A stretch of DNA of 10,144 nucleotides from contig CAZWPQ010000038.1 of the NCBI GenBank assembly GCA_964636085.1, positions 8,765 through 18,908 on the forward strand. Direction: 5' to 3'. The position numbers and the translations under genes are program-made. The notes under the pieces are model-generated. The model saw nothing but the letters and a program-made list of their open reading frames with translations. It did not search any database and was not told the origin of the DNA. How positions within the stretch are numbered: the first letter of the stretch is position 1; every line of letters starts with the position of its first letter. The stretch is from an uncultured Nitrososphaerota archaeon. GTDB taxonomy: Archaea > Asgardarchaeota > Njordarchaeia > Njordarchaeales > Panguiarchaeaceae. Positions 4,349 to 5,107 of the stretch are shown piece by piece.

Positions 4349-5107
4349 TTGCGTGAGTCCCATTGGTTATTGATCATTTCATTCCTGATAATGTTGCCCA
4401 GAATTGTTTCTGAGGCATTGTTCCGCTTCACATCAGTCAAGGTTATCTGGTTCTTCCGTATTATCGATATATTCGATATCACACTACAAACGTTGAGTCT
4501 ATTAGTCCTTGCCCTATATGTCTATTATAGGTATATCTATACACAGGGCAGAGATTACTCAATGATGTACCTAGCTCTGGTGGCTTTACTAATTGGTGGC
4601 CATATGATGCACTTCGCGGCTAATGCACTCGATATGCATTTTAGAGAAGTCCTAAACGAGGATCCTAGTAGCGCATTGCCGCATAGCGAGTATGCTCTCC
4701 TCCACTTTATTGATGAGTATTTGAGCCACCTAATAATGTTCACAGCACTCGTATTAATTATTTTGATGGGATCCCTCGCCGAAATTCGATGTGATGGGGA
4801 GGAATTATCAACGTCAGATATGGGCCTAATAATGTTTAGTGGGTTTATCCTAGGGGCAGGTCTTGGCATATCTGCGGTTGAGGCAAGTATACCACTCTAC
4901 ATGTTGGTGTTAACTATTTTGGCCCTTTCAGTTGTAGTATACCGCGCGAGGATGGATCATAAAAATGTTAGAAAATATCCATTCACATTATATGTTCTGG
5001 TGCTCTTCACGTTGCTTATACTATCAATTGCGACATTTATAGCAATATTTGGGTTCCAATCCCCACGAGAACTAATAGGATCCTATCTTGAGGAAAAATT
5101 TTCTTAA
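4349..5107 (+). CDS. Polytopic (~7 TM) membrane protein, CLN6-like, with a putative intramembrane metal or catalytic site
   Basis: 252 aa, TTG start after GGTGTGA, about 7 hydrophobic segments, and polar motifs GHMMHFAAN, LLHFIDEYLSH and AVEAS in the same order as human CLN6 GASIHLVGD, LLYYYDEYLGH and VTEGQ (recalled from memory). The CDS is secure; the family call needs an HMM search. Confidence 0.75.
   Translation: MRESHWLLIISFLIMLPRIVSEALFRFTSVKVIWFFRIIDIFDITLQTLSLLVLALYVYYRYIYTQGRDYSMMYLALVALLIGGHMMHFAANALDMHFREVLNEDPSSALPHSEYALLHFIDEYLSHLIMFTALVLIILMGSLAEIRCDGEELSTSDMGLIMFSGFILGAGLGISAVEASIPLYMLVLTILALSVVVYRARMDHKNVRKYPFTLYVLVLFTLLILSIATFIAIFGFQSPRELIGSYLEEKFS

Follow-up and report, generated by a model that had tools for sequence, protein, structure and literature searches.

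The CLN6-like gene and its surroundings

The window analyzed here is a stretch of 10,144 nt from the genome of an uncultured archaeon of the Njordarchaeales (GCA_964636085.1, contig CAZWPQ010000038.1, positions 8,765 to 18,908). On its plus strand, a reading frame of 252 codons followed by a stop is open at 4349-5107 and encodes a CLN6-like membrane protein. The features of this gene are listed below, all in window coordinates and with the evidence on which each was defined.

4339..4342, plus strand: GGTG, ribosome-binding-like site, 6 nt before the TTG (direct sequence reading)
4349..5107, plus strand: CLN6-like gene, TTG start, 252 codons and a stop, encoding a membrane protein of seven predicted helices (orthologue starts, AlphaFold2)
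4457..4477, plus strand: R37-D43 motif (R..D..D), where helix 2 begins on the outer side (conservation in 77 relatives)
4595..4633, plus strand: helix-3 motif G83-D95 with H85, H88, N92 and D95 (conservation, profile scan, dimer model)
4643..4648, plus strand: R99-E100 at the outer end of helix 3 (conservation; E100 in 39 of 77 relatives)
4691..4741, plus strand: helix-4 motif Y115-F131 with D122, E123 and H127 (conservation, human motif, hhalign)
4871..4888, plus strand: end of helix 5 on the outer side, residues 175-180, including E178 (human E227) (conservation, hhalign)
5051..5080, plus strand: C-terminal motif after helix 7, residues 235-244 (conservation)

Read directly from the sequence, the frame starts with TTG at 4349, a spacer of 6 nt separates this codon from the GGTG at 4339-4342, and a T-rich, TATA-like stretch is found about 30 nt upstream. 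The database gene call for the same ORF begins at the internal ATG (M15) and gives 238 aa, leaving out 4349-4390 and probably cutting about half of helix 1. Since the aligned starts of the close orthologues coincide with the TTG position of the window, the longer form, with helix 1 complete, is more likely to be correct.

Nine members form the close family, with identities of 46 to 68% and 39 invariant columns, and therefore the gene is under selection and is not a chance ORF. One of these orthologues, P0007 (MEX0568063.1), is from a 'Candidatus Njordarchaeota archaeon' (contig C246 of genome G072) that shares its genus with the genome of the window; Njordarchaeota are placed in the Asgard kingdom Promethearchaeati. 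An earlier note, made from the DNA letters, had singled out H85, H88, N92, D122, E123, H127 and E178 as polar residues in or next to the membrane helices. Their numbering is correct, all seven are invariant in the nine-member family, and the four archaeal motifs that the note quoted are present in the ORF translation.

The surrounding genes are on the minus strand. At 2692-4150, divergent from the CLN6-like gene, a flavodiiron protein of 405 aa (ODP metallo-beta-lactamase fold plus flavodoxin) is followed, with a 14-nt overlap, by a rubrerythrin-like ORF of 84 aa; together they resemble a pair for the detoxification of oxygen or nitric oxide, of the kind expected in an anaerobe. At 5137-8925, convergent with the CLN6-like gene, a protein of 1262 aa contains at least 10 bacterial TSP3 calcium-binding repeats and shows weak similarity (E 0.014) to the Ca-binding domain of clostridial binary toxin B/anthrax PA. 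This large protein is probably located at the surface or secreted. At 2-1768, a gene that runs past the window edge encodes a Ser/Thr protein kinase domain joined to a long array of TPRs, and the plus strand of this region has an unusually strong AT skew (about -0.46).

None of these neighbors recurs beside 11 relatives of the CLN6-like gene. Since neither neighboring gene is found again there, the CLN6-like gene appears to stand alone, and its neighborhood gives no functional clue. The orthologue P0006 (L001-L004) lies 30 to 106 nt downstream of enolase and upstream of a gene for a Yip1-like membrane protein, an arrangement kept on four contigs and absent from the window.

Homology to CLN6

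In the Pfam scan, no family, CLN6 (PF15156) included, matched the window protein or any of its close orthologues at E ≤ 10, and PF15156 found no match in the six-frame translation of the protein's own genome. Because a PF15156 match at E ≤ 10 is absent, the window protein is not a Pfam-defined member of CLN6, and the profile check that the earlier note had proposed for this homology came out negative for the protein itself. No NCBIfam model matched the window protein or four relatives, and sequence searches of the PDB, with the single protein and with the family profile as queries, retrieved no relative.

The evidence for a relationship comes from the wider family. A phmmer search with the window protein against 1.84 billion cluster representatives found 83 proteins at E ≤ 1e-3, and 77 of them, near full-length, were taken into the Pfam scan. 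PF15156 was matched by 16 of these 77 relatives, and any other Pfam family by at most 4. Most of the PF15156 matches fall below the Pfam cut-off (a gathering threshold of 27 bits for this family), and those with ranges shown are all inside model positions 108-253 of 280, in the same order. One bacterial member, P0067, reaches 32.9 bits with PF15156 (E 5.8e-8), above the 27-bit cut-off. This protein is reached from P0001 by phmmer with an E-value of 3.8e-5 in 1.84 billion proteins, and when the archaeal family A1 was aligned by hhalign with the P0067 subfamily A5, a probability of 97.9% was obtained (E 4e-13, 200 columns), with all the motifs in register. In the ESM Atlas feature search the nearest cluster was bacterial (score 0.95), with CLN6 annotated in 12% of its members. 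A profile search with A2 aimed at eukaryotic CLN6 recovered close relatives only, and a core-region profile limited to longer proteins gave no match.

Since 16 of the 77 relatives match PF15156, the matches with ranges shown fall on the same stretch of the model, P0067 exceeds the curated cut-off and A1 aligns with A5 at 97.9%, we take homology to CLN6 as established on sequence comparison, through intermediates and at the superfamily level only. The proposal of an archaeal CLN6 homologue thus stands by way of bacterial and Asgard intermediates, with P0067 at 32.9 bits, but not as a direct Pfam match.

Human CLN6 and the correspondence of residues

The enzymatic function of CLN6 was assigned only in October 2026, in two bioRxiv preprints dated 9 October and preceding peer review. 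Human CLN6, an ER protein implicated in Batten disease, is described there as a Ca2+-dependent epimerase converting R,S- to S,S-glycerophosphoglycerol, a step that precedes CLN8 and CLN5 in BMP synthesis (10.64898/2026.10.07.757350, 10.64898/2026.10.07.757477). Activity is abolished in the mutants D59A, D131A, D173A, E174A, H178A and E227A and in the variants R62H and H127Y known from patients, and it is largely lost in the Y182A/Y223A double mutant (10.64898/2026.10.07.757350, 10.64898/2026.10.07.757477). One of the groups proposes a phospho-histidine intermediate on H178, by which the phosphate is shifted between both primary hydroxyls of one glycerol (10.64898/2026.10.07.757350, 10.64898/2026.10.07.757477). 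Relatives outside eukaryotes are mentioned in neither preprint, and no paper linking CLN6 to prokaryotes was found in the literature searched.

The suggestion that CLN6 is a metal-dependent enzyme of a lipid pathway, beyond a cargo adaptor, is what both preprints now report for the human protein, and the residues found essential there are those that the earlier note had singled out. The preprints depart from the earlier guess of metal ligands in two respects: the metal is Ca2+, and H178 is a proposed nucleophile, more than a ligand.

For the human side of the mapping we used short motifs from the plasmid DNA printed in one preprint (10.64898/2026.10.07.757477), with which the four human motifs given in the earlier note agree. 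The residues H88, N92, D122, E123, H127 and E178 map onto human H127, D131, D173, E174, H178 and E227, respectively, and are 87 to 100% conserved over the prokaryotic family. All 77 relatives have H88 and H127, 74 have D122, and E123 and E178 are each found in 76. The column of N92 is more variable (N in 67, Q in 5, D in 3, E in 1), and its human residue is D131. In helix 4, the key positions of the motif D-E-x-L-x-H are identical to those of human CLN6. By hhalign, E178 aligns with the E-G-Q of the bacterial P0067 subfamily, which is also the human form.

The Pfam ranges allowed two placements for helix 3, and a human fragment of 42 residues was scored against family columns 78-96. The placement on human 117-135 scored 28.1 in this profile scan and the runner-up 1.9, which pairs H88 with human H127 and N92 with human D131. 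The other possibility, hinted at by the Pfam ranges, in which the family G-H-G-x-H would be human G141-H145, was ruled out, human 117-135 being ahead by 26 points.

Of the four pairings of archaeal and human motifs originally put forward, three are supported: that of the third transmembrane helix by these 26 points, and those of D-E-x-L-x-H and the glutamate by lying in the stretch of the Pfam model that the relatives match. The fourth, which joined residues 38-43 to the human stretch around D83, is not supported. When the human fragment 53-101 was scanned on family columns 16-52, no placement was clearly positive, and this pairing is thus left with no statistical support. For human D59 and R62, the candidate counterparts are either E22 and R26, where helix 1 ends on the outer side, or the trio R37, D40 and D43.

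Other positions differ from the human protein. The pocket tyrosines of human CLN6, Y182 and Y223, are absent from the window protein, with F131 at the position of the former (F in 51 and Y in 13 of the 77 relatives) and I174 at that of the latter. R37, D40, D43 and H85 are conserved only in the prokaryotic family (R37 is kept in 43, D40 in 64 and D43 in 63 of the 77 relatives), and this additional conservation suggests a differently built pocket. R99-E100 is a possible counterpart of human R149-E150, by spacing only. In the C-terminal motif, G235, F236 and P239 are family-wide, and S-P-R-E is found in the window subfamily only, the wider family having Q-P-S-E.

Fold, topology and dimer

An AlphaFold2 model built on the close-family alignment (pLDDT 85.4, pTM 0.83) shows seven long helices and a further, short one at the C terminus, in agreement with the roughly seven transmembrane segments previously read from the sequence. 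The net charge of the loops is most positive at 203-210 (+2.4) and most negative at 102-111 (-3.2). From these charges we infer an N-in, C-out orientation, in which the N terminus would be cytoplasmic and the C terminus and the pocket non-cytoplasmic, as in human CLN6. Combining the modelled helices with the charges, all conserved polar residues would lie in the outer half of the membrane, 0 to 16 residues from an outer helix end.

A complex of two copies was modelled with a score of 0.88, and the best of 3 controls gave 0.00. In the benchmark, this mark is reached by 20 of 30 one-chain pairs and by 1 of 23 single-chain proteins, counts that hold only roughly because our own alignment was used. 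At least 97% of the contacts agree between the runs, and the pLDDT of the partner is 85 or higher. The predicted interface is symmetric and consists of small residues of helix 3 (78-87, 89-91 and 93-94) and parts of helices 2 and 4. The residues listed for the interface do not include H88, N92, D95, D122, E123 or H127, and their absence fits residues that face the pocket of each protomer; the convergence on one cavity that the earlier note had asked for was judged from the topology and from this interface. The modelling supports a homodimer but does not demonstrate it.

Structure comparisons brought up no CLN6. Foldseek of the model against the PDB found nothing at E ≤ 0.001, and VIA-align against 48,161 chains gave generic seven-helix bundles only (best Z 8.8, a GPCR). 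The Atlas shape search returned only bacterial hypothetical proteins (best TM 0.63/0.77), with no named CLN6 cluster among the matches.

Distribution and family tree

The family is patchily distributed and extends beyond Asgard archaea. With the family profile, a copy was found in 42 of 301 sampled genomes of the archaeal phylum, belonging to 23 of 70 genera, and some genomes of the phylum have two to four copies. Three or four family matches were found in each of the genomes G095, G007, G239 and G284, some of them being fragments of one gene. In the phylum of one bacterial carrier, the family is present in 3 of 201 sampled genomes, and two of these were already-known carriers. Homologues with one to three in-frame stops inside the match were seen on G048:C202, G078:C289, G100:C64 and G284:C283; they may be decaying copies or assembly errors.

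The bacterial member P0067 is from Deferribacteres bacterium JdFR-76, a metagenome-assembled genome, and its relatives are in Ignavibacteriales, Zixibacteria, Verrucomicrobiota, Stahlbacteria and Cytophagia. On three contigs (L037-L039) its gene is directly downstream of a gene for an Omp85-family outer-membrane protein, with a sigma-54 two-component pair upstream. The bacterial Atlas clusters of CLN6-like proteins are mostly from Chloroflexota and Actinomycetota. The caution of the earlier note that similar bacterial proteins may exist was thus justified, and since the family is also found in several bacterial phyla, it is no Asgard-only signature.

In a tree built without eukaryotic CLN6, the Asgard sequences fall into several clades with well-supported branches between them. 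The clade of the window protein is in one half, together with three unlabelled proteins, and the largest Asgard clade is in the other half, adjoining the named bacterial clade. We also asked how close the Asgard members are to CLN6. PF15156 is matched by 2 of 20 divergent Asgard homologues (best E 0.003), and the Asgard-linked member P0058 reaches 23.5 bits with it. A greater closeness of Asgard than of bacterial members to CLN6 was ruled out, since the best match overall is bacterial. With 2 of 20 homologues matching and the clades scattered, there is no sign of a special closeness of Asgard archaea to the eukaryotic enzyme. The window subfamily is among the least CLN6-like of the family. The deep subfamilies and the multiple copies suggest functional diversification or repeated transfer.

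Proposed function

We suggest, with moderate confidence, that the window protein belongs to the CLN6 superfamily as a distant prokaryotic member, a probable homodimer with an outward-facing pocket, and that the reaction it most likely catalyzes is the 1,3-migration of a phosphoryl group on a glycerophosphodiester. The homology, the conserved catalytic core, the topology and the predicted dimer come from the analyses above; chemistry, metal and substrate we infer from the human enzyme. In this reading, the conserved polar residues would line a pocket open to the cell exterior, the side that is topologically equivalent to the ER lumen. By analogy with the human enzyme, D122, E123 and E178 together with N92, and perhaps D40, D43 and D95, could hold one or two divalent cations around the phosphodiester, and H88 could aid substrate binding. 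H127 would attack the phosphorus and form a covalent phospho-histidine intermediate, and the phosphoryl group would afterwards return to a hydroxyl. The outcome would be the epimerisation of glycerophosphoglycerol or of a similar head group. The chemistry is thus most likely an outward-facing, divalent-cation-dependent phosphoryl transfer through H127, with epimerisation as the leading candidate reaction. Since archaea are not known to produce BMP, the physiological substrate may differ from the human one.

It is possible, but we consider it doubtful, that the histidine and carboxylate chemistry is kept and the reaction is intermolecular, the protein being a glycerophosphotransferase or phosphodiesterase at the outer face that acts, for example, on an archaeal lipid head group or an envelope polymer instead of free glycerophosphoglycerol. 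The proposed covalent glycerophospho-histidine could pass its group to any acceptor hydroxyl or to water, and the pocket is not that of the human enzyme, with N for D131, F for Y182, I for Y223, R62 unplaced, and R37, D40, D43 and H85 kept only in prokaryotes. The organism has no known BMP pathway, and the deep subfamilies, with two to four copies in some genomes, suggest diversified specificity. However, the sequence does not separate transfer to an acceptor from intramolecular migration, the sole characterised member is an epimerase, and no neighboring gene indicates an acceptor pathway. We regard it as improbable that the homologue is no enzyme here and uses its polar cluster for binding only, as a metal-binding membrane scaffold, a sensor or a small-solute carrier. 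This would agree with the description of CLN6 before 2026 as an ER adaptor recruiting cargo, in a paper for which a corrigendum exists, and no prokaryotic member has a measured activity, but the histidine of D-E-x-L-x-H and both carboxylates are present in 74 to 77 of the 77 bacterial and archaeal relatives, as is typical of a retained active site.

Improbable as well, in our view, is that the protein is unrelated to CLN6 and has acquired a seven-helix His/Asp/Glu metal site by convergence, like an intramembrane zinc hydrolase, the Pfam matches being artefacts of composition. H85, H88, H119 and H127 could make a transition-metal site, there is no direct Pfam match, the matches of the relatives are mostly below the cut-off, and the structure searches led only to generic seven-helix bundles (best Z 8.8, a GPCR). 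On the other hand, PF15156 is hit by 16 of 77 relatives against at most 4 for other families, the ranges shown are on one stretch in the same order, and P0067 is above a curated cut-off. The positions essential in the human protein are also identical or nearly so, with matching spacing; the topology agrees and a dimer is predicted.

A bolder extension, which we consider unlikely, is that prokaryotic CLN6-like enzymes shift a phosphodiester from one primary hydroxyl of glycerol to the other on the outer side of the membrane, and so interconvert sn-3-type and sn-1-type glycerophosphate linkages. If true, this would give an Asgard archaeon an enzymatic route across the stereochemical divide between archaeal and bacterial/eukaryotic phospholipids, and the ancestor of the eukaryotic S,S-BMP pathway would be placed in prokaryotes. 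The family raises the question of what role the inversion of glycerol-phosphate stereochemistry would have in archaea and bacteria that make no BMP. A compact and probably robust prokaryotic homologue with the catalytic core is also a practical object for an experimental structure, and it would permit a test of the phospho-histidine mechanism and of the metal dependence.

Comparison with known systems

Human CLN6 and the window protein have in common seven helices, a cytoplasmic N terminus, a C terminus outside or in the lumen, and a polar pocket on the non-cytoplasmic side, these features being predicted for the archaeal protein. Both have D-E-x-L-x-H with the catalytic (in the archaeal protein, putatively catalytic) histidine, the G...H...[D/N] of helix 3 and a glutamate where helix 5 ends on the outer side. 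A homodimer has been modelled for human CLN6 with AlphaFold 3 and is predicted for the window protein. The latter is shorter (252 aa against 311 aa); the cytosolic N-terminal extension of the human protein is missing, and the loop from helix 3 to helix 4 is reduced by about 12 residues. Human D131, Y182 and Y223 are replaced by N, F and I, respectively, no counterparts can be assigned to D59 and R62, and R37, D40, D43 and H85 are additional conserved residues. Unlike human CLN6, the protein belongs to an archaeon, which has no ER and for which no BMP pathway is known.

The bacterial CLN6-like proteins are similar to the window protein in length, motifs and order of the helices. The bacterial subfamily is more CLN6-like, with a glycine preceding the putative catalytic histidine, an E-G-Q following helix 5 and a score that reaches the Pfam cut-off, whereas the window subfamily has a serine before this histidine, E-A-S and a C-terminal motif of its own, and remains below the cut-off. 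The other Asgard subfamilies (f10, f12, f20, f21 and f23) are in the opposite half of the tree, next to the bacterial clade, while the window clade is separate and more divergent; the conserved core is common to all of them.
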